A stretch of 64,000 bases of DNA from IMG/VR virus record IMGVR_UViG_3300035682_000025, positions 8,042-72,041 of that record. One strand, written 5' to 3'. This document shows positions 3,298 to 55,209 of this stretch, piece by piece. The first letter of the stretch is position 1. Each line of letters begins with the position of its first letter. The DNA is from a virus. The notes beneath the pieces were generated by a model, which saw only the letters and a list, made by a program, of their open reading frames with translations, was not told the origin of the DNA and searched no databases. A program made the position numbers and the translations under genes.

Positions 3298-4098
3298 ATG
3301 CCAATTGTAAATCACTTTTATAATGGAACAACGCGGCGCTACATCGCGTTGTTCGGTTCACTATTCAATAAGATGAGTCTGACTCGTGACGATAACGCAG
3401 GCAATGAAATACAGAGAATGGTCGTTCCTATTTCATACGGACCATTTCAGAAGTTCTTGGCAAAGCTTATTCAAGATCCAGATTTGTCAAAAATTTCAGC
3501 TGTCACTCTTCCAAGAATGTCATTTGAAATTGTGTCAATGTCTTATGATGGCCCAAGAAAGACAAACAGCCGCAATACGATATCAACCAATGACGGCGCT
3601 TCTGTATTCTCTCCTGCTCCATACAATATAGAGTTTAGTCTGTATATCATGACAAAATATGCAGAAGATGGAACTAAGATTATAGAGCAAATTATCCCAT
3701 TCTTCAAGCCAGAATATACATATAGCGCTTATGTTCTTGATAATGCGCCTGCTATGGATATTCCATTGGTGCTAAATAGTGTTAGTATAGAAGATTTATA
3801 CGAAGGTGACTTTGAGACTCGCCGAACTATGATGTGGACATTAACATTCACGATGAAAGCTTGGTATTTTGGCCCAGTTCGGGAAAAGAAGCATATCAAA
3901 TTTGTAGATGTTCGATCATATACACAAATGGAACAGGGTGGCGGTTCTATTATTACGGTTCAGCCTGGATTGACCGTGAATGGCGATCCAACTAATGATA
4001 TAACTGAAACAATACCATTCCAAGAAATTGAGATTGATGATGATTGGGGTGTAATCACAATAGTAGAGGATTTAGAATATGACGGCAATCAGCAATGA
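3298..4098 (+). CDS. gp15: Tail sheath stabilizer / tail completion protein (T4 gp15 homolog)
   Basis: Blocks conserved with T4 gp15: FYNGTTRRYIALFGSLF, TLPRMSFEIVSMSYD, KIIEQIIPFFKPEY. 266 aa. Confidence 0.85.
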   Translation: MPIVNHFYNGTTRRYIALFGSLFNKMSLTRDDNAGNEIQRMVVPISYGPFQKFLAKLIQDPDLSKISAVTLPRMSFEIVSMSYDGPRKTNSRNTISTNDGASVFSPAPYNIEFSLYIMTKYAEDGTKIIEQIIPFFKPEYTYSAYVLDNAPAMDIPLVLNSVSIEDLYEGDFETRRTMMWTLTFTMKAWYFGPVREKKHIKFVDVRSYTQMEQGGGSIITVQPGLTVNGDPTNDITETIPFQEIEIDDDWGVITIVEDLEYDGNQQ

Positions 4099-4561
4099 TC
4101 CGATTGAAATGGCTCTTGGATTGAGACCCGTTGAAGATGCTATTGAATATACCGACTATAGCAATGCGTCAGCTAGCGATACAGCGGGCTCCATATCCGT
4201 CACTACTGCCACCATGCCAGCGTTGATTGCCGCTAATGCTGACGAAGATGACACGGTACAGGACATTGAACTTGCTAGGTCTAATATAAAGAACATCATA
4301 GAGCAGGGAGATGATGCGCTCAAAGAGATGATCAATCTTGCAAAGCAGTCAGAAAGCCCAAGAGCCTATGAAGTTGCCTCAACCCTGATGAAGACGCTTC
4401 TTGATGCAAACAAAGACTTTGTGGAAATGTCTACGAAGAAAAAGTATGCCAAAGAAGAAATACTTCACCCGAAAGACGAAGCAGCTACGACGAATGTTAC
4501 CAATAATAACCTGATTCTGTCAACCGCAGATTTGTTGAAGATGCTAAAGGGTGATGAATGA
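4079..4561 (+). CDS. gp16: Terminase small subunit (T4 gp16-like)
   Basis: 160 aa ORF between gp15 and gp17 homologs, overlapping both (ATGA overlap with TerL), acidic, size matches T4 gp16. RBS GAGGA upstream. Confidence 0.6.
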   Translation: MTAISNDPIEMALGLRPVEDAIEYTDYSNASASDTAGSISVTTATMPALIAANADEDDTVQDIELARSNIKNIIEQGDDALKEMINLAKQSESPRAYEVASTLMKTLLDANKDFVEMSTKKKYAKEEILHPKDEAATTNVTNNNLILSTADLLKMLKGDE

Positions 4562-6249: not shown

Positions 6250-8130
6250 ATGGTTTTTTCCGTTAGTCCATCCATTACAGTAAGAGAAGTTGACCTTACT
6301 ACTACCGTTCCTGCTATTACAACTCCGCCTGCTGCTATTGCTGGCGTGTTCAATTGGGGGCCAGTCAATGAAAGAGTTTTGATTTCTTCTGAAATTGAGC
6401 TCGCAAATATATTCGGAAAGCCAACAGACGATAATTATGAAACATTTTTCTCGGCTGCTGACTTTCTATCATATTCTAACGCATTGTATGTCACCCGCGT
6501 TGTTTCTGATACCGCAAATACAGCAAGTTCAACTTACTTTGAAGCAAAATATCCAGGTGAGCTTGGTAATTCTTTAGCAGTATCTGTCGTCACTGCTGCC
6601 AATGATGATATAGAAGACCCGATTGCTTTTAGTGCTCCTGCTTGGACCGCAACTAAAGTTGTTGGGACGGTATCGGAGCTTCAGACAAACCCCGCAGACG
6701 AGGTCGCTGGAATGGCGTTTGGAACAACAGTTCTATATGTTACGACCTTAGCAGCAACACTAGATATCAAATCTGATGATGTTATCCACATATCTTCCGA
6801 CATATATGGCGCACAGGAAATTTCTGTATCCAATTTTGACGATAATATCACAAATGCAAACACAACTCCATACATTCATAAGATTACGCTATCTGGAAAA
6901 TATACACTACCAGAAACCGATCCAACTGATTTGACTTTCAGCCGCAGATGGGGATTTTCTAGTGCAGTTGGTGCAGCTCCTTCTGCTGGTCGTATGCATA
7001 TTATAGTGTATGATAACGATGGTAATATTACAGGTACTGCTGGCCAGATCATTGAAAAGTATGAAAATGTTTCGGCCGAACCTACTTCTAAACTAGCAGA
7101 CGGCACGAACAACTACTATAAGGATGTTCTCAGCACAAAATCATCTTATATCGTCGCTTTGGATTCAACCTCAATTGATACTGAAGACCAATTGCGTCAA
7201 GGCGACGTGCTCGCATCTGGCGCGAATGGTGAAAGCGAAAGCGAGATTGTTCTTGGCAAAATTGCGCAGGGATATGACCTATATAAAGAAGCTAACGAGG
7301 TTGATGTTTCATTTGCAATTCAAGGAAGACCATCTCTGAATCTTGCGAATTATCTGATTTCAAATCTGGCTGAATATCGCAAGGATTGTATGGTATTTGT
7401 TTCTCCAACTAAAGCTGATGTTGTTGATGTTGCATCACCACAGACACAGTTGACGAATATTCTTGCTTATCGCGCCGACCTTCAGAATTCTTCCTATTGG
7501 TTCATGGATTCTGGTTACAAGTATCGCTATGACAAGTACAATGATGTATTTCGTTGGGTTCCTCTGAATGGGGATATGGCTGGTCTTGCCTCACTTGTTC
7601 AGCCATGGGAGTCGCCAGCTGGTTATAGAAAGGGTCGCGTTCGTAATGTGATCAAACTCGCATTCAATCCAAATAAGGCTCAGCGCGATCAGCTATATGG
7701 AAAAGATGTCAACCCAGTCATTACACAATCTGGCCAGGGAACAATTCTTTTTGGTGACAAGACTGGATTTGGCACCGCAACCGGAAGCGCGTTTACTCGC
7801 ATCAATGTCCGTCGCTTGTTCATCACGGTGGAAAAGGCAATTGCTACAATATCTGCTCAACTATTGTTTGAATTCAATGACGAATTCACGCAAAATCAGT
7901 TTCGTCAGATTGTTGACCCATTCCTTCGTGACATTCAGGGTCGCCGTGGTATTATTGACTTCCGTGTTGTTTCGGATGCAACCGTGAACACCCCACAGAT
8001 AATCGATATGAACACTTTCCGTGCAAACATCTTTATCAAACCTTCACGTTCCATAAATTACATCGAATTGACTTTTGTGGCAACCAGAACTGGCGTTGAA
8101 TTTGAAGAGATTGTCGGCCAACAGTTCTGA
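6250..8130 (+). CDS. gp18: Tail sheath protein (T4 gp18 homolog)
   Basis: Strong conservation with T4 gp18, e.g. YRYDKYNDVFRWVPLNGDMAGL, SPAGYRKGRVRNVIKLA, AQRDQLYGKDVNPV, TRINVRRLF, INYIELTFVATRTGVEFEE. Confidence 0.9.
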   Translation: MVFSVSPSITVREVDLTTTVPAITTPPAAIAGVFNWGPVNERVLISSEIELANIFGKPTDDNYETFFSAADFLSYSNALYVTRVVSDTANTASSTYFEAKYPGELGNSLAVSVVTAANDDIEDPIAFSAPAWTATKVVGTVSELQTNPADEVAGMAFGTTVLYVTTLAATLDIKSDDVIHISSDIYGAQEISVSNFDDNITNANTTPYIHKITLSGKYTLPETDPTDLTFSRRWGFSSAVGAAPSAGRMHIIVYDNDGNITGTAGQIIEKYENVSAEPTSKLADGTNNYYKDVLSTKSSYIVALDSTSIDTEDQLRQGDVLASGANGESESEIVLGKIAQGYDLYKEANEVDVSFAIQGRPSLNLANYLISNLAEYRKDCMVFVSPTKADVVDVASPQTQLTNILAYRADLQNSSYWFMDSGYKYRYDKYNDVFRWVPLNGDMAGLASLVQPWESPAGYRKGRVRNVIKLAFNPNKAQRDQLYGKDVNPVITQSGQGTILFGDKTGFGTATGSAFTRINVRRLFITVEKAIATISAQLLFEFNDEFTQNQFRQIVDPFLRDIQGRRGIIDFRVVSDATVNTPQIIDMNTFRANIFIKPSRSINYIELTFVATRTGVEFEEIVGQQF

Positions 8131-16682: not shown

Positions 16683-17837
16683 TTATGCTTTCACCTTTGC
16701 GCGGGTCAGAACCGTCTGTTTGGTTCCTTTGTAGAGTTTATGTTCTTTCACAGTCGCATCAACTTTGAGGTTGGTGCCTTCGGCGGATTCGACCTTGTTT
16801 CCGGTGATCCACGAGAAGGCATTGCCATCGGCATCTTTCAGCAGGTGGAGATAGGAAGGCCCGAAGGAGCCAGAACCGAGATAGATGATCCGTTCCAGCA
16901 ACAGAGAGACATCTTTCAGACGACCCTTGACTTCGCCAACGAAGTTGCTTTCCTTGACCGCAGCCTTCGGAGCGAGTTCCCGCTGCGCGGTGATGACAGC
17001 ACTAGAAATCAGGGCGACATGTTCTTTCTTGATAATGTCCTGCTTCGTCAGCACCCGAATGTTATCCATGTAATCATTGCCGAACGAAACATCCCGCCGA
17101 AAGAAGCCAACCGTTTTTTCGGCCCACTCGCGGTCAATCTCGGTGGGTTCAATCTTGTAGGCAGGAACCCCAGCGATTCCCCACATCACCATCTCGCCGG
17201 TCGTCGGGTCACCAGTTTCAGTCTGCCGTGCCTTGGAGACATAACCATGTTTCCGAATATTGGCAGCAGCTGCAACCAGAACCTCGTTCAAGCCGTAGTA
17301 GCCGAAAGAACCGAAGTTGCCGAGATCATCTTCATCCGACATATCTTTCAGTTCTTCAAAGAACTGAGCACGAGCGACAATCGATTTCGGGTCATCGATG
17401 CCGAGAAATTCCCGCAGGCACTGCCGACCGACAGCGATCTGCTTTTCGTCATTGGCGAGAACGAACACATCATTCCGCCGACGAGCAGAGTTGCAGTGGT
17501 CGCAGAAACCGTCATGCGACCGAAAACGCTCTTCCAGTGTTTTGGTCGTGCCGGGAACCCGATGGACCAGGTTCTCTTCACCGAGAAGTTCGATCCGAGC
17601 GAGGAAATCCCAACCCGAAATCCGCGGTGCTTCACCAGAGACAGTCACATCTACGAAGTCAATGACCATCTTGCCGTATTCGGTGTCCACCTCGCGAGAG
17701 ACGACTTCACCGAACGAAAAGGCGATGTCGGGATTGCCGTTCTTGACGGCTTTTTTCGCGAGCTTCACAAGCCGCGCCTCGATGGTGGTCTTACGGAAGG
17801 CGGGAATCGAGAAAGTGGTGAGTTCCATGATGAGCAT
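16683..17837 (-). CDS. Hypothetical 384-aa protein with Cys/His cluster (FCDHCNSARRRND), in GC-rich island
   Basis: Long ORF in a region of about 52-55 percent GC versus about 42 percent elsewhere. The antisense 374-aa ORF is a GC shadow. No recognisable family. Confidence 0.6.
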   Translation of the reverse strand: MLIMELTTFSIPAFRKTTIEARLVKLAKKAVKNGNPDIAFSFGEVVSREVDTEYGKMVIDFVDVTVSGEAPRISGWDFLARIELLGEENLVHRVPGTTKTLEERFRSHDGFCDHCNSARRRNDVFVLANDEKQIAVGRQCLREFLGIDDPKSIVARAQFFEELKDMSDEDDLGNFGSFGYYGLNEVLVAAAANIRKHGYVSKARQTETGDPTTGEMVMWGIAGVPAYKIEPTEIDREWAEKTVGFFRRDVSFGNDYMDNIRVLTKQDIIKKEHVALISSAVITAQRELAPKAAVKESNFVGEVKGRLKDVSLLLERIIYLGSGSFGPSYLHLLKDADGNAFSWITGNKVESAEGTNLKVDATVKEHKLYKGTKQTVLTRAKVKA

Positions 17838-17882
17838 CTCCTCTGGGTTACAGCTACACTCTAGGCCGAATCGATGTCCAAG

Positions 17883-18206
17883 TCAAGCGGCTTGTTCGCC
17901 AAGAACCTGAAAAAGATTGACGCAAGAGTGTTTTTCGATCCAATCATATACATATTCTCGTGGCGCGGTATCCATGTCATAAAGATGCTGCTCTGCCCCT
18001 TTCCAATCTCCATCTGCCAATAATACAGCAGCATCGATACCGCTCGAAGCATCCATAAGGACCATAGAAAGCATAGAGGCGTCATCTTCCCACATCACGA
18101 GATCATTTTTCAGTTTGGTCATGACCTCATTCTTTACAGCTTTAGCGAGAGCATCCCAATCTACTTTCACGACTTTGACTACCGTCTCGGTGATTACTAC
18201 AGTCAT
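17883..18206 (-). CDS. Hypothetical protein
   Basis: Track ORF trimmed to the internal ATG at 18206 (RBS AAAGGAA), which abuts the stop of the upstream gene. GC-rich island. Confidence 0.4.
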   Translation of the reverse strand: MTVVITETVVKVVKVDWDALAKAVKNEVMTKLKNDLVMWEDDASMLSMVLMDASSGIDAAVLLADGDWKGAEQHLYDMDTAPREYVYDWIEKHSCVNLFQVLGEQAA

Positions 18207-18219
18207 TTCGATTCCTTTC

Positions 18220-18528
18220 TTAAGCAGCGAGTTTCTTAGCCATCCAAGCTTCCACAACATCAGCAATCCGTTCACTTTCGTCGCCTTCTGTGTAGTAGAT
18301 TGTGAATTCGCCAACGCGGTTCGTGCTCTCTTTGGATACATACTCAAAACCGCCATAATATTCCAGAGAACCACGATTGGGTTCTTCTACGATAACAGCA
18401 TCTTCTGTGACCCAGATAGAGCCGCACCGATAGTCAAGACCAACAAGACTCGCATTCAGGCATTCGCCATTCTCTTCTAGCCACTCACGAACCCGCTCTT
18501 CAGCGTCACTTACGATATCATAAAGCAT
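18220..18528 (-). CDS. Hypothetical protein
   Basis: 102 aa, ATG start, GC-rich island. Confidence 0.45.
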   Translation of the reverse strand: MLYDIVSDAEERVREWLEENGECLNASLVGLDYRCGSIWVTEDAVIVEEPNRGSLEYYGGFEYVSKESTNRVGEFTIYYTEGDESERIADVVEAWMAKKLAA

Positions 18529-18541
18529 GGTATGTTTCCTT

Positions 18542-18853
18542 TCAACCAGCGATTTTTTTCAGAGCATTCAGAACGCGAACCGACCCGCCACTTTTATTCA
18601 TCTTGAACACACGAGAACTCATAGCGGACAGAGCCCCAATACCCCCACCATCCGTGCCCCAAATACTGCCGGGGCTGGTCGAGGGCAGAAGACCGAGAAT
18701 ACTGAAGTATTCCATGTCAGCCCGAACAAAGTCATCAGTCGAGTTGATGCCCGACTTGGTGATGGTCAGGATGGAACCGCGAACGGTCACCTCCCAGCCA
18801 TACTCATTAGCGACAGCGAGAATCTTCGCGGCGGTTTCTGTAGCAGCACTCAT
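18542..18853 (-). CDS. Hypothetical protein
   Basis: Track start 18868 is a TTG. ATG at 18853 is preceded by GAAGGAG. Confidence 0.45.
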   Translation of the reverse strand: MSAATETAAKILAVANEYGWEVTVRGSILTITKSGINSTDDFVRADMEYFSILGLLPSTSPGSIWGTDGGGIGALSAMSSRVFKMNKSGGSVRVLNALKKIAG

Positions 18854-18888
18854 GGCGATCTCCTTCAAAGCAGCGATTACTTTTTGAC

Positions 18889-18915
18889 AGTATAGTGATT
18901 CGGATTTATTGTCAA
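18889..18915 (-). promoter_or_regulatory. Conserved early promoter P1 (TTGACA-N15-TATACT with CGAATC spacer)
   Basis: Reverse complement reads TTGACAataaatccgaatcacTATACT. Confidence 0.55.
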
Positions 18916-19295
18916 GCGGCGATAAGCATCTCTACCGCTTCAAATGGAATATTGTCAGCTTTGTATTTCCACACAGAGACGAACCATGCCTCACCGTCCC
19001 ACAGGTAGAGGTACTGAGCTCCAGCATATTCAAAGCCTTCAGCGAAGTAATCTTCGACCGAAGCGAAAGTGACAGCCTTGTCCGAATGAACAGCGCTATT
19101 CCGCGACTCTTCGTAGTCCTTCGTCAGTGACGACAGATAACCACCAGTCGCAACAATCCAAGCATCCAATGAACTGTTGTAGGATTCCGTAAGCAACGCG
19201 CCCACCCCTTCGACATAACCATCATAATGAACATAGGAAGCAGTGACTTCGTTGGTCTCTTCGTCCCAAATACCGATCATAGCATGAGTACCCAT
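18912..19295 (-). CDS. Hypothetical protein
   Basis: 127 aa, ATG with RBS AAGGAG. Confidence 0.5.
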   Translation of the reverse strand: MGTHAMIGIWDEETNEVTASYVHYDGYVEGVGALLTESYNSSLDAWIVATGGYLSSLTKDYEESRNSAVHSDKAVTFASVEDYFAEGFEYAGAQYLYLWDGEAWFVSVWKYKADNIPFEAVEMLIAA

Positions 19296-19338
19296 TGCGA
19301 TTCTCCTTGTCTCGCGATTACTTCTTGACGGTATACCG

Positions 19339-19365
19339 ATTCGTCTCTCTTGTCAAGCAAGTATT
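19339..19365 (-). promoter_or_regulatory. Conserved early promoter P2
   Basis: Reverse complement reads TTGACAagagagacgaatcggTATACC. Confidence 0.5.
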
Positions 19366-19393: not shown

Positions 19394-20770
19394 TCACGCG
19401 CCAGACATAATAATTTGTTTTGCTAGTTTTTCTTCTTCTAGCGTTAGATGTCTGATCTCTGTTTTTCCATCTTTTATTCCAAAAAGTGTTGCTGTTTCTC
19501 CGATACCAAGTAGTTTTCTTTCAATTCTGTATGCGCGTTCGGCTCGATTCCATAGAACTTCGTTCAGGGTAAAATCTGTCTGTGATACCACCTTTTTTAT
19601 GCGACGGTCTACGGAAATATCATTTGATACACCAAACTTCCAAATATTTGGATTTTCGATGGTGTTCCACATATAAACCACGTCAACGCGCCGCAAACCA
19701 ACAAGCATATGACGACAAATTTCATCCAACCAGTCGTTGATGCGCGCCGCATGATATGCACCACCCGCTGCTACAAAAAACTCTTTCCTAGTATTGTATT
19801 TTCTTGCTTCTTCTGCACAGTTTTCATATGACCAATGATTTGGATTTGCTGTAATTTTTGGAGACATGTGACCATGCGCTTCATCCAGCCAACCATTTCT
19901 CTTTGCGGCAGAGTAAGCACCACAATTGGATTTTCTAAAGTCTTCTCTCGATTCATATTGTCTCGATTGTTTTAGGCATAGCTCTTTTGTCCAATATCCA
20001 CTTGGTTTTTTTGAAGTATCATACAAATGGCGAATCAATTCAACCCAGTTGTTTCTTTTGATTGCGTTGTATAGATTCTTATTGCAATTTAGCATTTCGG
20101 AAAGGGTTTTATATTTAGAAACTTCCTGTTTGCATTTTTCATATGTCCAATACTCGTATACATCTTTCATACCATCAAATAGTTCTGTCCATCCACTGGT
20201 ATGAATTTTGTAATATGCTGATGGGCTAGACAATCTCATTTCTAGTTTTGATTTATACAACATGGCTTCTTTTTTGCAAGATTCGTATGTCCATTTTGTT
20301 CTTAGTTTGTGTCCATTTGTCATATGTGAACAAATTTCATCGAACCATCCTTCCTTTACGCTTTTTCTATGAAATGACGGTGACGCTTTTTTGAAGTCGC
20401 TTTTGGTTTGATATTTGAGTGCTTCTTGTTTGCAATCTTCATATGACAAATTAGGAGTGGTGTTCATGTGATTACAAATTTCTGGCAACCACCCATAAGA
20501 TTTTGCAAACCTATACACTTCCACATTTTCTTTCTCAAATTGCTTGTGTGTTTTGTACACGGAGGCAACTTCTTTACAATGTTCGTATGAAAACTTTTCT
20601 GTTTTCGGCTTCTCCATGTGCTTACATAATTCATCCAGCCATCCGTTTTTTCTGGCTGCTTCATATGCCCTACCAGAGCCTTTCTTGAAACTTACTCTAT
20701 TTGTATATTTTGATGCTTCATCAGCGACTTGCTCTTTTGTTCGCCAGTATCTATATTTTTTCGTATTCAT
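19394..20770 (-). CDS. Tandem-repeat protein with C-terminal T5orf172/GIY-YIG-like domain
   Basis: Seven imperfect 45-50 aa repeats (W..E.C..EA.KY....F.K....AY.AA.KNGWLDE.C.HM) are followed by VYMWNT..NPNIWKFGVSNDISVDRRIKK..., matching the T5orf172 / GIY-YIG-like fold. Confidence 0.6.
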   Translation of the reverse strand: MNTKKYRYWRTKEQVADEASKYTNRVSFKKGSGRAYEAARKNGWLDELCKHMEKPKTEKFSYEHCKEVASVYKTHKQFEKENVEVYRFAKSYGWLPEICNHMNTTPNLSYEDCKQEALKYQTKSDFKKASPSFHRKSVKEGWFDEICSHMTNGHKLRTKWTYESCKKEAMLYKSKLEMRLSSPSAYYKIHTSGWTELFDGMKDVYEYWTYEKCKQEVSKYKTLSEMLNCNKNLYNAIKRNNWVELIRHLYDTSKKPSGYWTKELCLKQSRQYESREDFRKSNCGAYSAAKRNGWLDEAHGHMSPKITANPNHWSYENCAEEARKYNTRKEFFVAAGGAYHAARINDWLDEICRHMLVGLRRVDVVYMWNTIENPNIWKFGVSNDISVDRRIKKVVSQTDFTLNEVLWNRAERAYRIERKLLGIGETATLFGIKDGKTEIRHLTLEEEKLAKQIIMSGA

Positions 20771-20797
20771 TTTTGCTCCAAGTTTTAGTTTTCTTTG

Positions 20798-21331
20798 TCA
20801 AGCAAGTATTTGCATGGTCATGAAAGAAGCGAAGTCGTCATAGCCATTTTTGAGGTTGAACACTGGTATTTTGTAGTGGGTTGCTATCCTGATTGCCTGG
20901 CCCGTACCACCACTTGCTTTGCCGTCTTTTGTCCAGCATAGAACAAAGTCAACTGGGCTTTTCAGATCAGACCCTAGAACTTGATATGAGTTTCTTGACA
21001 TAAATTTCCAACCAGCATCTGATAGTGCATCTGGCTTCGGATGATATTTTCGAACAAGGTCGGGATTGAATGGCGGAACGATGTAACTACCTTCGCCGTG
21101 AAGTTTGATCAGCGGTTCTATGTTCCGTTTATTGAACCCATCCCAAGGAAGGAATATTTGTCGATTGATAACTGCGCCCCACTCGAAGGCAGTATCAGCT
21201 CCATCAGCCCCACCGGAATTGCAAGTATAGCCAAGAGACGCTAATCTCTTGGCTATTGCTGTCATATGTAGACATACTTCTGGTGGTGTTCTTCTTGAAC
21301 CGATTCCGGCGTATGCCCTAACGCTTTGCAT
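20798..21331 (-). CDS. DprA/Smf-like Rossmann-fold (SLOG) protein
   Basis: AGIGSRRTP...SGGADGAD...GA and RNSYQVLG motifs match the DprA Rossmann domain. 177 aa standalone. Confidence 0.55.
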   Translation of the reverse strand: MQSVRAYAGIGSRRTPPEVCLHMTAIAKRLASLGYTCNSGGADGADTAFEWGAVINRQIFLPWDGFNKRNIEPLIKLHGEGSYIVPPFNPDLVRKYHPKPDALSDAGWKFMSRNSYQVLGSDLKSPVDFVLCWTKDGKASGGTGQAIRIATHYKIPVFNLKNGYDDFASFMTMQILA

Positions 21332-21566
21332 CTTCTAGCATAGCTAAACACATCCTGAAATTTCCAATCACATCATCAAGTTCATATGAAAGTTCTTCAT
21401 AAACCTTTCCGTCTTCATCGGAGACGACACCTTCAAGAAACCGTTCTACGAGATCCATATGCGAATAGATGATTGATGGTGTACCGGCATTCCCAAGGTA
21501 TAGGTTCAATCCAGAACCATCTACCATCAGAGAAATATCAATATTTGCTGAAATTGATTTGATCAT
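21318..21566 (-). CDS. Hypothetical protein
   Basis: 82 aa, overlaps neighbours by short coupling overlaps. Confidence 0.4.
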   Translation of the reverse strand: MIKSISANIDISLMVDGSGLNLYLGNAGTPSIIYSHMDLVERFLEGVVSDEDGKVYEELSYELDDVIGNFRMCLAMLEDAKR

Positions 21567-21817
21567 TTCATCCCCAGCGCGGCTTTATACATTTCCATGA
21601 TCGCTTCTTCCTCGGCAATCTCATCCGGCTTGCGCTTGCGCAGCGCAATCACTTTTTTCACGATCTTGCCATCATATCCGCGGCCCTTAAGTTCCGACAT
21701 GAGTTCTTTTTGATTCTCGGTCACATCTTTTTTCTCTGCTTCTAGCTGCTCGTAGCGTTCAATGAACTGGCGTAGTTCATCAGCAGTAACATTGTAGGCT
21801 TCATTCGTATCGCTCAT
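21563..21817 (-). CDS. gapR: GapR-like nucleoid-associated DNA-binding protein (DUF2312)
   Basis: LRQFIERYEQLEAEKKDV...KGRGYDGKIVKKVIALRKRKPDEIAEEEAIMEMYKAALGM matches the GapR/DUF2312 family. Start re-assigned to ATG 21817 with RBS AAGGAG. Confidence 0.75.
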   Translation of the reverse strand: MSDTNEAYNVTADELRQFIERYEQLEAEKKDVTENQKELMSELKGRGYDGKIVKKVIALRKRKPDEIAEEEAIMEMYKAALGMK

Positions 21818-22137: not shown

Positions 22138-22581
22138 TCATGGATGAAGCGAGAACTTTTTCAGAATAGTACTCGCAAATTTGTCATTTTCTTTGTTGGG
22201 CACAAATACATATGCGCAGGTATCCAGCGGAATGTGATGGACAACCTCGCCGTCAAGAATTGGATAGGTCGGATCATGAACCACATCAGCAATGTATTCC
22301 ATGCCCCGGAAAATGTCAACTGTTGCTTTGATGTCCGGCATTTTTCCAGCAAGAACAAGTACAGTGCCGAAGAATTGAGAAGTCGAGTTTTCCCATTCAG
22401 CAAAACCAGTCATGGTCGAGGTTTGCATCTCACTGTACATTGGCTTCGAGTTATACTCTTGAGCATAACCATGAAAATGTCCGACAAATGCGTTAGACGC
22501 GTGACTTGCCTGAGCCATTGCCTTTCCGGCATTAAGCGAGGCAAGGTCATTCCGAACGATGATATATAATACTGCTGTCAT
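22138..22581 (-). CDS. Peptidyl-tRNA hydrolase, PTH2 family-like
   Basis: N-terminal LYIIVRNDLASLNAGKAMAQASHAS resembles the PTH2 signature (hhVVRxDLxMxxGKxxAQxxHA). Confidence 0.5.
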   Translation of the reverse strand: MTAVLYIIVRNDLASLNAGKAMAQASHASNAFVGHFHGYAQEYNSKPMYSEMQTSTMTGFAEWENSTSQFFGTVLVLAGKMPDIKATVDIFRGMEYIADVVHDPTYPILDGEVVHHIPLDTCAYVFVPNKENDKFASTILKKFSLHP

Positions 22582-22912: not shown

Positions 22913-23289
22913 TCTTTCCTTTCCTCCATCATATCGATTGAACGGAACACCAGAATCAAAATAGAGATGACGACAGTAGTAACAGTGATGCCCGCAAAAA
23001 GCACATACCCAAGCGTATAGAGATGCCAGACTCCAAGTAGTAGAAGAATTCGAATAATAATAAGCGTTCTAGCATCAGACCTTTCGGTAAATGCTTTGAG
23101 CTCTTCGATTCTCTTTTCTGGATTCTTAAGCAGAGTCTTCTGAAATCCTATAACAATTGCGATTGAGTATAGTACCAAAAATACATTAAGACAGAGAATG
23201 CCGATGATGATGTTGGTCGCCCAGAGGGCTCCACCCATAGACATATAGAGTGAACCAGCGATCACAGATGCTACGATTATATAAATCAT
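22909..23289 (-). CDS. Integral membrane protein (4 predicted TM helices)
   Basis: Start re-assigned to ATG 23289, which is ATGA-coupled to the upstream gene. Four long hydrophobic stretches. Confidence 0.5.
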   Translation of the reverse strand: MIYIIVASVIAGSLYMSMGGALWATNIIIGILCLNVFLVLYSIAIVIGFQKTLLKNPEKRIEELKAFTERSDARTLIIIRILLLLGVWHLYTLGYVLFAGITVTTVVISILILVFRSIDMMEERKE

Positions 23290-23852
23290 CCAATTTCCTT
23301 TGATTTGAACCATTCTGGAATTTCGCGATTGGTCCATGCCATCTTGAATCGTTCTTGTTTTGTTTGATAGAAGGCACGATAGGAACGAACTGGGTCGTTA
23401 TGAAACATGCATTCTGGGTTAGATTTCATGGCGAGTGCAAATGGCGTCATTGGACCATACTTGATGTTTTTTGGCATCAAGGATAGTTTTTCGCGCAAAA
23501 CTTTATCAGTCAGATGTACCTTGCCGTAGCGATGCGTATACTCGTCACACAGCGCGATGAAATGAGCGTAGTGCCAACCATAGTTCATTGCAGATGCCAT
23601 TGTCCAAGCCGTGCAGGGATGAGCGCTGTGGACGGCTTTATACAGAATATGATTCATATATGGATCAGGATGTAGCCATACTTTGACTTGCGATTTTCCC
23701 GACTTGGACGCTGCTTTGATAGAGTGTCCATCAAGGATGCGGTGTGCTGTTGAGAGCATTTGTGCGCTCTCAATTACCATTTTTGGAATGTGTTTATTGC
23801 ACTGCAGTTGTGCAGCCTTTACTGGCTCCAAATCAAGAATGAACAGATTCAT
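23286..23852 (-). CDS. Hypothetical protein (His/Trp-rich, 188 aa)
   Basis: Well-formed ORF, no confident family assignment. Confidence 0.5.
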   Translation of the reverse strand: MNLFILDLEPVKAAQLQCNKHIPKMVIESAQMLSTAHRILDGHSIKAASKSGKSQVKVWLHPDPYMNHILYKAVHSAHPCTAWTMASAMNYGWHYAHFIALCDEYTHRYGKVHLTDKVLREKLSLMPKNIKYGPMTPFALAMKSNPECMFHNDPVRSYRAFYQTKQERFKMAWTNREIPEWFKSKEIG

Positions 23853-24284: not shown

Positions 24285-24291
24285 TAGTGCA

Positions 24292-24319
24292 GATTACGGC
24301 GATTCGGATGTATTGTCAA
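24292..24319 (-). promoter_or_regulatory. Conserved early promoter P3
   Basis: Reverse complement reads TTGACAatacatccgaatcgccgTAATCT. Confidence 0.55.
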
Positions 24320-24570
24320 GCCAGAGAAACGCGCCGTTCGTAAGTCTTCCGCCGAGGTTTTTCGACACCGGTCGTTTTCGGTTTCGCGTTCACAGCGTAC
24401 CGAATGAGCCGCTGATCCACATCAGACAGAGCATGACCCCTGCTCGAAGGGGTCTCGAACCGAACAGCGAGCGCAGACGCTGCATTCGCGATCACATCAT
24501 TCTTATCTTTCTCTGCGGTGTAGTAGAGGGTCTGCAGGAAAGACTTGGCACGAAGGTCATTGATGATCAT
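24316..24570 (-). CDS. Hypothetical basic protein
   Basis: 84 aa. Confidence 0.4.
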   Translation of the reverse strand: MIINDLRAKSFLQTLYYTAEKDKNDVIANAASALAVRFETPSSRGHALSDVDQRLIRYAVNAKPKTTGVEKPRRKTYERRVSLA

Positions 24571-38448: not shown

Positions 38449-38828
38449 TAACCTGCCACCTTATATGCTACGATATCCCATCGATTCATTGGGTCGCTTG
38501 CGCTACGATGTCTCCAAGTAATCTGTGGCCAGTGTTTAGCAGCGATAGGAGAACGAGGAATTCTGCCGCGCACTTTGACAGCAACAACAGTTTCGCCATC
38601 AACGGGACGGTCTCCGCCTTCCCATATAATGAAACCATCCCCATCAATTGCAACACTTTCAGAGCAAAGATTGCCAGATGGGTTCTTTGCTGGCTGATAA
38701 TCATTCTCTACAATTGTCAATGCGTTTCTGGCTCGTTCCCTGCACCAATGCCCGCCGCGTTCTTCGCCCCAGCTTGCAATTTCTTGTAAAGCATTCTGTA
38801 GTGATTCATGGGTTTTCATATCAATCAC
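38448..38828 (-). CDS. Hypothetical protein
   Basis: 126 aa. Confidence 0.4.
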   Translation of the reverse strand: MIDMKTHESLQNALQEIASWGEERGGHWCRERARNALTIVENDYQPAKNPSGNLCSESVAIDGDGFIIWEGGDRPVDGETVVAVKVRGRIPRSPIAAKHWPQITWRHRSASDPMNRWDIVAYKVAG

Positions 38829-39963
38829 CGCCTTTCAGCAAAAACGAGTTGGAAATTGTCTTGAAGCTGAAACTCGGGTCTTCATTGCACTTCCACACAA
38901 GACCTTCACGGATTTTGTGATTGATGCTCGGACCTTCTGCAAGAGCAAGACCTTCTTCAACACTGTTGGGTGCTTTCCAGTTAGAGCCGTGTAGTGGAAC
39001 ATGCTCAAGACCAAGCAACTGACAATTTACGCGACGGTCGCCCGGAGAGACATACTCGTGCTTCTGAATGTCGAACATATCGAAGACAAAGAAACGGTGT
39101 TCTTTGAACCCTTCACGGTTACCCTGAATCGACGGGCCGCACACTTCCCCCTGAAATGCATATCCATCTGGAATTTTATCACCAATCTTGAGAGCCATAG
39201 CAACAAAGGTATTGTCCTTGTTCTCGTCATTGATTTTCAGTTCAAGGTTCCGGCTTGCAACACGAAGTTCACCTTCCCATCGGAAGATAGTGCAGCTAGA
39301 ACCGTCCAGCTTCAGAGTGACTTCGTAGGTTGGCTCTTGGAAGTCAGCAGGAAGAACTACTGGCCGTTGATCAAGGCGTTGAAGCTCAGCATCCCAAACA
39401 GTTTCAGTTGCAAGTCGCTTGGCTTTCTTTTGAATATCGCCAAAGCAGTTTTGAATGCGCTCTTGATCGGTCTTCGGGATCAGCGATGTTGGGAAAGTAC
39501 CTTTTGCTTGACCTTGCAATTGCGCAGGAAGAGGTGCTTCCCACTTTTGAATGTTGAGGAATTCGGTCAGGTCAGTACCTTCTTTGATTTCAGGTCGCTC
39601 TGGTAGATTTACAGGAATGTCACCACCGTCACTGTTACACCAAATATTGATATAATCTTCTGCAACGCAAATTGGCAGCAAAAGCCCCTGAGAAACCTGC
39701 CCCCTAAGTTTGATTGTCCGCAGACGTTCACCCTTCACACCATTGTATTCGCGGGGTTCATTTCCTTTGCTCAAGAATGCTGCGAGTTCATGCGGAACCC
39801 AAGAGTCAATTTCGAGGTATACAGCAAGGTCGTTCACAGCGAATTCGCCGCGCTTTACGACGACCTTCCATCCGTCAATAGTAGCCACTTCGACGGCATC
39901 AGCACCTTCGATGGGTCGAATGTCGGCAATGCGCCGAATAGAAGCAAGTTTACGCTCAGTCAT
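38821..39963 (-). CDS. ATP-dependent RNA ligase-like nucleotidyltransferase with N-terminal putative tRNA-binding OB-fold domain
   Basis: Motif I KLDGSS (Rnl1-like KxDGS), motif IV-like EGLVWK, C-terminal K-rich motif V. The N-terminal 60 aa (IRRIADIRPIEGADAVEVATIDGWKVVV) resemble the Trbp111/EMAP-type tRNA-binding domain. Confidence 0.55.
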   Translation of the reverse strand: MTERKLASIRRIADIRPIEGADAVEVATIDGWKVVVKRGEFAVNDLAVYLEIDSWVPHELAAFLSKGNEPREYNGVKGERLRTIKLRGQVSQGLLLPICVAEDYINIWCNSDGGDIPVNLPERPEIKEGTDLTEFLNIQKWEAPLPAQLQGQAKGTFPTSLIPKTDQERIQNCFGDIQKKAKRLATETVWDAELQRLDQRPVVLPADFQEPTYEVTLKLDGSSCTIFRWEGELRVASRNLELKINDENKDNTFVAMALKIGDKIPDGYAFQGEVCGPSIQGNREGFKEHRFFVFDMFDIQKHEYVSPGDRRVNCQLLGLEHVPLHGSNWKAPNSVEEGLALAEGPSINHKIREGLVWKCNEDPSFSFKTISNSFLLKGGD

Positions 39964-41968: not shown

Positions 41969-41997
41969 AATCTACACCGATTCGATGCTCGTGTCAA
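41969..41997 (-). promoter_or_regulatory. Conserved early promoter P10
   Basis: Reverse complement reads TTGACAcgagcatcgaatcggtgTAGATT. Confidence 0.6.
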
Positions 41998-42248
41998 GCA
42001 TCTTTCTCATGGAATATCTCATTTTCGCCGATCATATCTAAAATAAGTTGAGCAGAAATAAGAACGATAGAGCTCTCTCGCGAACCCTCGTCATTCTTTC
42101 GTAAGATGTGAAATACAACGCTCCTATCGTTTGGTTGGTGCAATTCAACTCCGGTGCAAACGAGGTCTTGGATCTTAGGTTTCAGTTGCCGAAGAAATTC
42201 GGTAATATAATCTAGGTCATCACTTAACAATTCTGAGCGCATAGACAT
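41994..42248 (-). CDS. Hypothetical protein
   Basis: 84 aa. Confidence 0.4.
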   Translation of the reverse strand: MSMRSELLSDDLDYITEFLRQLKPKIQDLVCTGVELHQPNDRSVVFHILRKNDEGSRESSIVLISAQLILDMIGENEIFHEKDA

Positions 42249-42249
42249 C

Positions 42250-43371
42250 CTATGCCTCCAACCAGTTCATCATTGCTTCATACTTCGGACCGTTACCGAC
42301 GGAATCCTTGATCTTCTTGATAACGAGAGGGCGAAGTTCCTTGCCATCAAGAGCCGAGAAGATGAAAGAAGCATCTTCCTTGTTGATCAGATTCGGGACG
42401 AAGTTGATAGCAACATCCTTCTTCACTCCACCATGCAGGACACGAGCAAGAGTAACCAACCCCTCCAGCCGCCCAAGAGCGTTCTCCAGCGCAGCGTCAA
42501 AGCGGCGTTCATAAGCACGAACGGTTGCCAGGTCAGTCGCATCAAGCAACGGGAGAACATCATCCAGCTGCTCGTTGATGATAATGTCAGCGATGTTTCG
42601 GTCAGAGCGAACCAAGTCTTTGGTTTTATGAATACGGACATACCAGTCGTTCTTGATCTTCAACATGTGGCCATCAGCGAACCGAATGATATCACCTTCA
42701 CGGCCAGACATCTCGCGAGCACGAGCAATGTATTCCGACAGACCACCCTCTACAGAACCATACTGCTGAACAACCTCGAAAGGAGCCGAGTGTGGCATAT
42801 AGTAGTTGCCAGTGAAGTTGTTGCGCATGGCCAGAAGAACGAGCTTCGGCTCAGCATACTCAATCACGATTTTGTTGGTCGGAGCAATATATTCAAAGAT
42901 AGGAGTTACATCGGAAAGCACCAGCTGCTCAAGCCACTCGTATTGTTCAGCAGTAAGCAGTTTTTCAGCTTCAATAGCGATGTCAGTCACGCCCATCTTG
43001 GTTGCAAGACGAACCATTCCGTTCAGGCAAATCGGCCGGATCATCGACCCATCCATCTTTTCCATGATGACATGGGGCTTGGTCATATCAATTGCATGAA
43101 TTTGCGTTTCTTCTTTTTCAAGGGCATTGAAAAATTTGTGGAAGGGGCGCGACATGATATAGCCCTCAAGGTCAAAGATCAAGCCGCGGCATTCACGCCG
43201 AATAGCACCACCAAGGTCATCCGGGCCAGTCATATCAAAGGTATCAGCCATCGCAACAACATAGTTGATAACAGTACCAAACTCGCGCTCAGCAACAATA
43301 AATTCGGAGCGACCTTCAATGTGAGGAAGCACATCGTTGATGGTGCGGATTTCAGGGAATTGATAGTTCAT
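42250..43371 (-). CDS. rnlA: RNA ligase 1 (T4 RnlA homolog)
   Basis: ECRGLIFD, motif I EKMDGSM, FEYIAPTNKIV, EGDIIRFADGHMLKIKNDWYVRIH all match T4 Rnl1. 373 aa. Confidence 0.85.
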   Translation of the reverse strand: MNYQFPEIRTINDVLPHIEGRSEFIVAEREFGTVINYVVAMADTFDMTGPDDLGGAIRRECRGLIFDLEGYIMSRPFHKFFNALEKEETQIHAIDMTKPHVIMEKMDGSMIRPICLNGMVRLATKMGVTDIAIEAEKLLTAEQYEWLEQLVLSDVTPIFEYIAPTNKIVIEYAEPKLVLLAMRNNFTGNYYMPHSAPFEVVQQYGSVEGGLSEYIARAREMSGREGDIIRFADGHMLKIKNDWYVRIHKTKDLVRSDRNIADIIINEQLDDVLPLLDATDLATVRAYERRFDAALENALGRLEGLVTLARVLHGGVKKDVAINFVPNLINKEDASFIFSALDGKELRPLVIKKIKDSVGNGPKYEAMMNWLEA

Positions 43372-45231: not shown

Positions 45232-45260
45232 ACACTACACCGATTCGGTTTGATTGTCAA
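45232..45260 (-). promoter_or_regulatory. Conserved early promoter P13
   Basis: Reverse complement reads TTGACAatcaaaccgaatcggtgTAGTGTcaat. Confidence 0.6.
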
Positions 45261-45544
45261 CCCATCAATTCATTCATAGCGCGTTTCCAGTTGTATTCTT
45301 CAACGACTCGTTCTCCGGGTACCTTGGCGTACATGCCCATTGTTCCGACACTGTATACCTTGACAAACTCAGCAAGACCATCACCACCAGTGCGGGTGCG
45401 TTCAAGAGCCATAGCGACCGCATCATTTGGGCAAGTCGTTATGCCGAACACACTATCCCAATCTACAATGGCATATCCGACAAAGTTGGTGTTGGCAGCG
45501 AGGGCGAGAACTTCATTATTCATAGGCGATTCCTTTTCTGACAT
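45257..45544 (-). CDS. Hypothetical protein
   Basis: 95 aa. Confidence 0.4.
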   Translation of the reverse strand: MSEKESPMNNEVLALAANTNFVGYAIVDWDSVFGITTCPNDAVAMALERTRTGGDGLAEFVKVYSVGTMGMYAKVPGERVVEEYNWKRAMNELMG

Positions 45545-49309: not shown

Positions 49310-49338
49310 AATCTATACCGATTCGGGCATCATGTCAA
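49310..49338 (-). promoter_or_regulatory. Conserved early promoter P17
   Basis: Reverse complement reads TTGACAtgatgcccgaatcggtaTAGATT. Confidence 0.6.
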
Positions 49339-49372
49339 GAAGAAAAATCGATATAATTTATACATTTTCTTC

Positions 49373-50904: not shown

Positions 50905-50933
50905 ACACTACACCGATTCGGAAACATTGTCAA
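50905..50933 (-). promoter_or_regulatory. Conserved early promoter P18
   Basis: Reverse complement reads TTGACAatgtttccgaatcggtgTAGTGTcaat. Confidence 0.6.
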
Positions 50934-50936
50934 CCA

Positions 50937-51509
50937 TCAAAAGCCGTGTTGCTCTTTATACTTCTTGAGCCACACCAGCGCATCTTCTCTCTCTTTTTTC
51001 CATCGCGGAATGTGTTCATCCCATCCGACTTGGCTCGGCCATGTATCTGGCTTGATGTATTCATTGTCTGCTTCTAGCATAGCAATGGCTTCATCGATAG
51101 TTTTGTTGCCTTCTTTGCCGAACGACCCTAGTACTTTAGCAGCTTGATGTTTACCGAGTCCTTTGAGTGTGTCTATACCTAGCCAAGATTCAATATAACA
51201 ACGCATACATGTACAAGGAAAACAGGTGCAATCGCCGCCATGTTGGTCATCAATATAACTGATGTAATCCTGAATTTCTTCGGACTCCACTTCAAGATTA
51301 TAAATTGCAGCCCATTTGCCAGCTATTTTTTTGATTTCCTCTGTGTCAGTAAGGGGAGGGTCAGAGAAATCTCCATTTAGTCGCATATTGAGATTACAAA
51401 GAAGATCGCTATACTGCTCATTCTGATAAGCAGCAAGTATCATCTGTTTATCCCGATCATCAAGTTCGACGGTGGTCCAAAATGGATTTTGATTCCAGTT
51501 GATTTTCAT
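50937..51509 (-). CDS. Hypothetical protein (Cys-rich CTCFPCTCMRC segment)
   Basis: 190 aa. Confidence 0.5.
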   Translation of the reverse strand: MKINWNQNPFWTTVELDDRDKQMILAAYQNEQYSDLLCNLNMRLNGDFSDPPLTDTEEIKKIAGKWAAIYNLEVESEEIQDYISYIDDQHGGDCTCFPCTCMRCYIESWLGIDTLKGLGKHQAAKVLGSFGKEGNKTIDEAIAMLEADNEYIKPDTWPSQVGWDEHIPRWKKEREDALVWLKKYKEQHGF

Positions 51510-55176: not shown

Positions 55177-55205
55177 AACATACAGTGATTCGGGTCCATT
55201 GTCAA
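55177..55205 (-). promoter_or_regulatory. Conserved early promoter P19
   Basis: Reverse complement reads TTGACAatggacccgaatcactgTATGTT. Confidence 0.5.
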
Positions 55206-55209
55206 GCGG

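Follow-up and report, generated by a model that had tools for sequence, protein, structure and literature searches.

An optional gene coupling a seven-unit helical repeat array to a putative GIY-YIG-superfamily nuclease domain in a T4-like phage

Homing endonuclease genes with a T5orf172 domain have been described from phage ICP1 and from T5-like phages, and 87% of these phage genes carry the DNA-binding domains DUF723, DUF4379 or CapR, often in repeated form (Barth, Dunham & Seed 2023, PMC10448857). A nuclease derived from such genes, the T5orf172 chimera Odn of phage ICP1, cuts the satellite of that phage (PMC8263062), and T4 itself is without T5orf172 genes (PMC10448857). The variable regions of T4-type phages are known for a modular shuffling of genes by means of promoter-early stem-loop (PeSL) cassettes (PMC2839356, PMC4122927). 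Here we compare with these systems a gene on a stretch of viral DNA of 64,000 nucleotides (nt), IMG/VR record IMGVR_UViG_3300035682_000025, positions 8,042 to 72,041, which is called the window in the following and belongs to a T4-like myovirus. The gene, here named REP for repeat-nuclease gene, encodes a protein of 458 amino acids (aa) in which an array of seven helical repeat units is followed by a C-terminal domain of the GIY-YIG superfamily. We consider it probable that REP is a free-standing selfish gene of the homing-endonuclease type that reached its place between two conserved early genes of this phage by horizontal transfer. The features needed for this argument are the following:

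19394..20770, minus strand: REP, 458 aa, from the list of open reading frames (ORFs); guanine-cytosine (GC) content 37.3%
19703..20752, minus strand: repeat array of REP, seven units of about 48 aa (aa 7-356), from the unit hidden Markov model and the shuffle test
19397..19693, minus strand: T5orf172/MUG113-like (GIY-YIG superfamily) putative nuclease domain of REP, aa 360-458 (99 aa)
20798..21331, minus strand: DprA-like Rossmann-domain protein, 177 aa, immediately upstream of REP (phrog_768, 2.4e-53)
18912..19295, minus strand: g127, a conserved 127-aa phage gene (phrog_1987), downstream of the REP insert

Relatives of the locus were retrieved via the DprA-like protein and via g127. Both flanking genes were kept in two of these viral contigs, L005 and L034, and in both of them REP was absent from the junction. 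In L005 the DprA-like gene is followed directly by g127; the neighbouring genes share 48-87% protein identity with those of the window in the same order from g188 to g384, and the DNA homology between the two runs to position 20796, breaks, and resumes at 19344. In L034 a paralogue of g127 occupies the junction. REP is therefore polymorphic in presence and absence at a fixed site between conserved genes. Other genes were found behind the DprA-like gene in further relatives, namely a 198-aa ORF in L006 and a methyltransferase in L007 and L009. The L007 protein belongs to Methyltransf_24 (Pfam, 6.6e-15) and L009 has a similar ORF, while the 198-aa ORF of L006 had no Pfam match. The whole stretch from the DprA-like gene to the convergent capsid module (window 16683-19295) was hypervariable among L005, L006, L007, L009 and L034 and was filled by different small ORFs.

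REP also stands out by its base composition. Its GC content is 37.3%, compared to 45.5% in the DprA-like gene, 48.4% in g127 and 47.1% in a gene for a GapR-family protein further upstream, and the genes flanking the insert span 45-50%. This foreign GC content speaks for an external origin of REP at some stage. The ATG start codon is preceded by GGAG at a distance of 7 nt. A protein identical to REP is encoded on several other, independent metagenome contigs, and homologues of the same architecture were found in unrelated genomic contexts, such as P0013, which is encoded among small ORFs. REP belongs to phrog_20046 (3.8e-60), for which PHROGs lists an unknown function.

Both ends of the insert are marked by a short direct repeat, and one of these copies is part of a sequence that recurs in the window:

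20795..20810, minus strand: left copy of the 16-nt direct repeat AATACTTGCTTGACAA, covering the final codons of the DprA-like gene with its stop
19350..19365, minus strand: right copy of the 16-nt direct repeat AATACTTGCTTGACAA, 28 nt after the REP stop
19328..19360, minus strand: complete promoter-like motif (TTGCTTGACA, 17 nt including CGAATCGG, then TAnnnT), upstream of g127
18887-18919, 24291-24323, 41969-42001, 45232-45264, 49310-49342, 50905-50937 and 55177-55209, all minus strand: examples of the promoter-like motif

The two 16-nt copies lie 1445 nt apart and are the only exact copies within the window; at the corresponding place L005 has a single, diverged copy. The right copy is the start of the promoter-like motif, with the 16-mer making up its -35 half. 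Behind the left copy there is no -10-like element, only the ribosome-binding site of REP. The motif can also be described as GCTTGACA, about 7 nt, CCGAATCGGTGTA and a TAnnnT-like element, and it contains an unusually conserved spacer element, CGAATCGG. It matched the window 17 times, 15 of them on the minus strand, compared to 3.1 matches expected, and 17 matches were reached in none of 100 shuffles. This recurrent motif is probably the early promoter consensus of the REP-bearing phage. It was revealed by a pattern derived from the junction, of which an over-long version matched nothing; a generic sigma-70 scan yielded nothing useful at the REP junctions. In L034 the same promoter-like cassette is duplicated around a different inserted gene. 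A PeSL-like recombination between promoter cassettes explains the direct repeat of REP better than a target-site duplication, and by analogy the REP locus resembles the outcome of PeSL shuffling. The locus is thereby a clean case of a duplicated promoter-like cassette at which a gene of a variable T4-like region was gained or lost.

The C-terminal domain of REP was originally predicted as T5orf172/GIY-YIG-like from the string IWKFGVSNDISVDRR, which is found within aa 360-458. A phmmer search among 1.84 billion protein representatives returned 36 relatives of this domain at E<=1e-3. In an alignment of 35 members (A1), eight positions were invariant, Y366, W368, K378, G380, R390, E417, G435 and E438 (Y7, W9, K19, G21, R31, E58, G76 and E79 in the numbering of the alignment), and the family follows the layout Y-x-W ... 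[WY]-K-[IFV]-G ... R ... E ... D-G-x-T-E-F-R. These invariants match the GIY / [YK]-x-G / R / E layout of GIY-YIG domains. The motif residues Y366, K378-F-G380, R390 and E438 are thus present in REP and invariant in the 35 members, and their positions suggest catalytic roles for Y366, G380, R390 and E438. When the members were scanned one by one at E<=1, MUG113 was matched by 19 of the 35, T5orf172 by 15 and Tox-URI2 by 7. Four members exceeded the cutoffs of Pfam, three of them for MUG113 (P0139 with 29.0, P0138 with 27.1 and P0145 with 23.5, cutoff 22.3) and one for T5orf172 (P0152 with 22.8, cutoff 20).

The predicted structure pointed in the same direction. The AlphaFold model of the C-terminal domain contained the three-stranded sheet flanked by helices (beta-beta-alpha-beta-alpha...), its best match among solved structures was the GIY-YIG nuclease SLX1, and GIY-YIG nucleases were enriched among its fold matches. 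Among the predicted viral structures of BFVD, matches found with Foldseek included several proteins with a 'T5 Orf172 domain', one with CapR homology and one of the GIY-YIG type. A sequence-profile search of the PDB with alignment A1 gave no meaningful match. From sequence and predicted fold, we place the REP C-terminus in the T5orf172/MUG113 branch of the GIY-YIG superfamily, as a divergent member in which the conserved residues are intact. Because it was reached by transitive homology and fold, this membership holds for the wider family only. In other proteins, the REP-type C-terminal domain is fused to DUF723, DUF4379 or CapR zinc-finger repeats (P0133, P0137, P0150).

The remainder of REP consists of the repeat array, and the claim of seven tandem repeats in the 458-aa ORF was borne out. 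Units were first anchored on the motif G-W-x-x-E, and the profile then built from them detected exactly seven (aa 7-54, 57-104, 105-152, 157-202, 205-251, 258-303 and 311-356) with a period of 48-53 aa and an identity of 21-46% between units. The mean pairwise local score of the units was 83, compared to 21.4 +/- 1.05 in 300 shuffles of the repeat region (z about 58), although the lowest score of a real pair, 47, is near the top score of a shuffled pair, 48. The conserved positions W, C, KNGWLDE, C and HM, which had been ascribed to each repeat, hold at the level of the family and not for every unit of REP: the first W is missing from units 2 and 3, the first C from unit 1 and the second C from units 4, 5 and 6, HM is replaced by GM in unit 4 and by HL in unit 5, and NGWLDE is confined to units 1 and 6. 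Tandem Repeats Finder detected no DNA-level tandem repeats in REP, and between the units only short motifs recur in the DNA, with 63-85% identity. The repeat units are ancient and diverged at the DNA level. A recent internal duplication was rejected, given that no tandem repeat is visible in the DNA.

No further unit was found with the unit profile in a six-frame translation of the window outside REP. The array is basic, with an isoelectric point (pI) of 9.2 and a net charge of about +19. AlphaFold2, with two GenBank phage sequences left out of the alignment, predicted four short helices per unit. The confidence in terms of pLDDT (predicted local distance difference test) was above 90 for a repeat unit inside a two-unit model, 91.7 for units 6-7 together with the C-terminal domain and 84.9 for unit 7 alone. 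It was low for the linker between units, which fits an arrangement as 'beads on a string'. The repeat unit showed no significant structural or sequence match to the helix-turn-helix or other known DNA-binding folds, a sequence-profile search of the PDB with the repeat alignment (A3) returned no meaningful match, and there was no relevant match in Pfam, NCBIfam or PADLOC for the whole of REP, the C-terminus alone, or one or two repeats.

From these observations we propose for REP a life cycle of the homing type. The basic repeat array would serve as a 'beads-on-a-string' DNA-binding module that brings the nuclease domain to a long and degenerate target. The enzyme would then cut REP-less genomes at or near the junction of the DprA-like gene and g127, and recombinational repair at co-infection would copy REP in, helped by the repeated promoter cassettes in the manner of PeSL-style shuffling. 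The GapR and DprA-like genes would merely form the neighbourhood of the landing site.

Several points weigh against this interpretation. The REP C-terminus had zero matches to PF10544, PF01541 and PF13455 even at E<=10, which is where the original prediction of a T5orf172/GIY-YIG domain fails as a direct profile match, and the REP sequence reaches no nuclease model of Pfam or NCBIfam. An hhalign comparison of A1 with the canonical GIY-YIG domains of the repeat family (A4) was non-significant (probability 3.9%, E 0.011), albeit in the correct register, with GIY on VVY, YVG on KIG and R on R. Both the nuclease activity of REP and its cleavage site are predictions. The syntenic relatives at the junction number only two, with 78-81% DNA identity. 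A deletion between the 16-mers would also give the arrangement of L005, so that the event may have been a gain or a loss of REP. Classical homing, moreover, creates no flanking direct repeats.

Instead of mainly spreading itself, REP might be a domesticated weapon against competing phages, satellites or host DNA, a use to which T5orf172 nucleases with swapped DNA-binding modules have been put (PMC8263062, PMC10448857). Its place in an early-gene cluster with a ribosome-binding site, the lack of any predicted terminator-like site on the minus strand, and the integrity of all invariant C-terminal residues would suit such a role. We regard it as unlikely, however. REP has no DNA-binding domain derived from a satellite or a replication origin, and its candidate for DNA binding is a generic repeat common to more than 1,800 GIY-YIG proteins. 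PADLOC returned no defence match for REP, and the presence/absence polymorphism and foreign GC content fit a selfish element equally well.

Another explanation, which we find quite doubtful, is that REP is a decaying or non-catalytic relic, i.e. a DNA-binding or regulatory protein, or a functionless gene in the process of being lost. Pfam does not recognise the divergent C-terminal domain, repeat units 4 and 5 have degenerated furthest, with unit scores of 38-44 bits compared to 52-74 for the remaining five, the flanking 16-nt repeats would permit a precise loss, and a regulatory role has a precedent in I-TevI, which doubles as a repressor (PMC10448857). On the other hand, the ORF is intact and its identical product recurs on the independent contigs, all eight residues invariant in the family are kept, and the AlphaFold2 models are confident.

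The interpretation of REP as a homing-type gene draws further support from the proteins that share its repeat. With the full REP as query, 1,816 proteins were found at E<=1e-5, from bacteria (Shewanella, Vibrio, Colwellia, Photobacterium, Desulfonatronovibrio) as well as phages, and many of these entries are titled 'GIY-YIG nuclease family protein'. Within the phage collection, REP was matched by 26 records (Vibrio, Rhizobium and Burkholderia phages), and among the Vibrio and Rhizobium phages a single genome can hold homologues at as many as 7-9 places. Nearly all of the best 120 matches have 8-13 units and a non-repeat segment of about 100 aa embedded in the array, with, for example, 5 units before it and 8 behind it, and this segment is a canonical PF01541 GIY-YIG domain. 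A terminal domain of the REP type was found in 3 of the best 120 matches (REP itself, P0013 and P0074). The repeat family, with more than 1,800 proteins, almost always couples the array with a nuclease domain of the GIY-YIG superfamily. Two swappable nuclease modules and two swappable repeat modules fit the repeat as the substrate-targeting part.

For nucleases that carry a DNA-binding module it is unusual to have the nuclease domain in the middle of the array, as in most of the homologues P0002-P0120. The Vibrio phages pYD38-B and 1.210.O are among the unrelated contexts of the closest homologues with the architecture of REP. There, the REP-type gene extends into the beginning of a gene for about 615 aa (L002:3887-6584, L003:3818-6602), annotated as helicase in 1.210.O and as hypothetical in pYD38-B. 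A REP-type gene beside a helicase fits the reported tendency of such genes to adjoin essential replication genes. Many REP homologues (P0009, P0010, P0016 and others) carry the precomputed Pfam accession PF26058, which may be a recent Pfam entry for the REP-type repeat; in the literature we found no papers on PF26058, DUF7667 or the motif NGWLDE. The family is without a solved or described relative.

Conservation was calculated over 898 units, numbered such that the first W is position 4. The most conserved positions were H45 (97%), A13 and F22 (93% each), M46 (91%), W4 (89%), C43 (87%), Y30 (86%), W38 (83%) and C9 (81%), and the consensus can be written as W-T-K-E-x-C-x-x-E-A-x-K-Y-x-T-R-x-E-F...A-Y...G-W-L-D-E-I-C-x-H-M. 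Helices 2 (positions 19-25) and 3 (positions 27-35) have a conserved core of F22, A29, Y30 and A33, with which the most variable columns, 20, 23, 25, 27, 31 and 34, alternate. As a tentative and unlikely extension, the four-helix unit of about 48 aa could represent a new class of modular nucleic-acid-recognition repeat that occurs in arrays of 7-13 units. The hypervariable, exposed columns 20, 23, 25, 27, 31 and 34 would then read a few bases per unit, and arrays of 7-13 units would provide GIY-YIG-type nucleases with long, evolvable target sites. This would amount to a natural 'repeat-array nuclease' with a logic like that of TALE or zinc-finger nucleases, potentially decodable and reprogrammable, and if the units bind DNA individually they would offer a new natural scaffold for sequence-specific nucleases.

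A function of the array other than in DNA binding, as a metal-binding (Cys/His) or a protein- or RNA-interaction scaffold, appears improbable. It would be in line with the rank of H45, C43 and C9 among the most conserved positions and with a repeat that matches no known DNA-binding fold, and a possible metal-binding module had been one of the original suggestions. A zinc-finger or other metal-binding repeat would call for four conserved Cys/His ligands per unit, and among the candidate ligands consistent conservation is limited to C43 and H45. In 17% of the units C9 is replaced by V, L or I, as would be expected for a position in the buried core, and this leaves at most 2-3 ligands per unit. 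The strongly basic character of the array, its coupling to two different DNA nuclease domains, and the alternation of hypervariable and conserved columns in helices 2 and 3, which is like an exposed recognition surface, also speak against such a scaffold.

Two further genes lie on the 5' side of REP:

21563..21817, minus strand: GapR-family nucleoid-associated protein, 84 aa (PF10073, 98.4 bits, E 1.7e-28)
21318..21566, minus strand: 82-aa ORF between the GapR and DprA-like genes, overlapping both

The DprA-like and GapR genes had been placed downstream of REP. As all of these genes are on the minus strand, GapR, the 82-aa ORF and the DprA-like gene are in fact upstream of it, and the order of transcription is GapR, 82-aa ORF, DprA-like gene, REP and then g127. 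The first three genes overlap by 4 nt and 14 nt, a gap of 27 nt precedes REP, and g127 begins 98 nt beyond it. The identification of the GapR (DUF2312) protein was correct: it exceeded the cutoffs of PF10073 (22.6) and of NF010247 (94.8 compared to 94), and it matched solved GapR structures in the PDB (6cfy and 6cfx at E 8-9e-19, and also Caulobacter GapR 6jyk and 6ozx). It remained below the cutoff of the Caulobacter equivalog NF052541 (68.5 compared to 140). The 82-aa ORF gave no family match in our scans; a homologue was recognisable in L005, L006 and L007 (26-48% identity). The DprA-like gene is a member of a phage family, phrog_768, with a homologue in 1,474 phage records, and in this sense the original designation stands, but cutoffs for DprA proper were missed both in Pfam (PF02481, 19.2 bits compared to 29.6, aa 5-54 only) and in TIGR00732 (16.3 compared to 191), and DprA in the PDB was matched only at E 0.17.

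In seven related contigs (L005-L010 and L015), GapR precedes the DprA-like gene at a distance of no more than a few hundred bases. That REP is the partner of these two genes in a three-gene module for DNA handling or nucleoid manipulation had originally been suggested as a possibility. It would be in line with co-oriented, tightly packed genes, with the absence of terminator-like sites on the minus strand and with products that all plausibly act on DNA. Such a module is highly improbable and largely refuted by synteny: REP was in none of the seven contigs within the stretches covered, it is absent from the junction in both relatives keeping the flanking genes, neither DprA-like nor GapR genes adjoin its homologues of the same architecture, and its base composition differs.

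The window encodes typical genes of a T4-like myovirus, including a large terminase, tail sheath, scaffold, major head protein and RNA ligases. Its T4-type portal protein (phrog_213, 1.6e-188) is nearest to those of the Sinorhizobium phages phiM12, phiM7 and phiN3, with 55-56% identity, and a near-identity DNA search in the phage records of INPHARED gave no match to the window. The genome of phiM12 was too distant for its synteny to inform on the insertion of REP. A GapR homologue was found in 149 phage records, mostly from Rhodobacter, Rhizobium, Ruegeria, Agrobacterium and Caulobacter phages. This distribution and the affinity of the portal support the alphaproteobacterial host that had been proposed for this phage, which we consider plausible from these sequence comparisons.

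Some additional genes of the region were observed. A 147-aa protein encoded upstream of GapR (22138-22581, minus strand) matched the peptidyl-tRNA hydrolase family PTH2 in its N-terminal 45 aa only (25.4 bits compared to a cutoff of 23) and is kept in all close relatives. A 188-aa protein (23286-23852, minus strand) belongs to phrog_624 ('DNA binding protein', 6e-50) and in Pfam resembles pyrimidine-dimer DNA glycosylase weakly, below the threshold. Two genes of the RNA-ligase family lie within 3.5 kb on the minus strand (38821-39963 and 42250-43371) and belong to phrog_968 and phrog_562 ('RNA ligase and tail fiber attachment catalyst'). Between a 63-aa gene and GapR, L006 encodes a 382-aa protein of the IMP dehydrogenase/GMP reductase family (L006:593-1741; PF00478, 1.1e-67), and gaps of matching size are present in L007 (about 3374-4536) and L008 (about 638-1797). 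The absence of this gene from the window and from L005 identifies it as an insertion or deletion of an auxiliary metabolic gene in the same early cluster.

Homing-type nucleases as such are nothing unusual in T4-like phages. What makes REP of interest is the widespread, uncharacterised repeat that accompanies GIY-YIG-type nucleases, in more than 1,800 phage and bacterial proteins, with two GIY-YIG-type partner domains and no named function. Among these, the repeat-bearing GIY-YIG proteins such as those of Shewanella putrefaciens (P0005) and Vibrio alginolyticus (P0018), which fall into PHROG 20046, share the same repeat of about 48 aa with REP. They differ in having 8-13 units with an embedded PF01541 domain, whereas REP has seven units and a terminal domain.

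Compared to the canonical GIY-YIG homing endonucleases of T4-like phages, i.e. the Seg proteins and I-TevI (PMC2988022), the putative nuclease of REP is C-terminal and not N-terminal, belongs to the [WY]-K-[IFV]-G / T-E-F-R branch and not to the PF01541 type, and is joined to a candidate DNA-binding region that is not of the NUMOD or helix-turn-helix type. Similar to PeSL loci, REP is located in a variable T4-like region and flanked by a short promoter-like sequence that recurs in the genome; unlike there, only the -35 half is duplicated at its left side. As for the neighbouring GapR, the 84-aa protein of the window is a bona fide member of the family (DUF2312/UPF0335) of Caulobacter GapR (PDB 6cfx, 6ozx), but it is phage-encoded and not functionally tied to the repeat nuclease.

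The closest similarity is to the phage T5orf172 homing endonuclease genes and Odn (PMC10448857, PMC8263062). As in these genes, a terminal domain of the T5orf172/MUG113 type is combined in REP with a repeated array of small domains arranged as 'beads on a string', the gene is free-standing between conserved phage genes, and modules are swapped among the proteins. Unlike in these genes, the repeats of REP are all-helical units of about 48 aa and not the zinc fingers of 87% of the described genes, its domain falls below the Pfam threshold for T5orf172, and its nuclease activity is predicted. REP thereby places a homing-type nuclease of the T5orf172 branch in a T4-like phage of a probable alphaproteobacterial host, and suggests that nucleases of this branch use at least one putative DNA-targeting module besides the zinc-finger repeats described so far.

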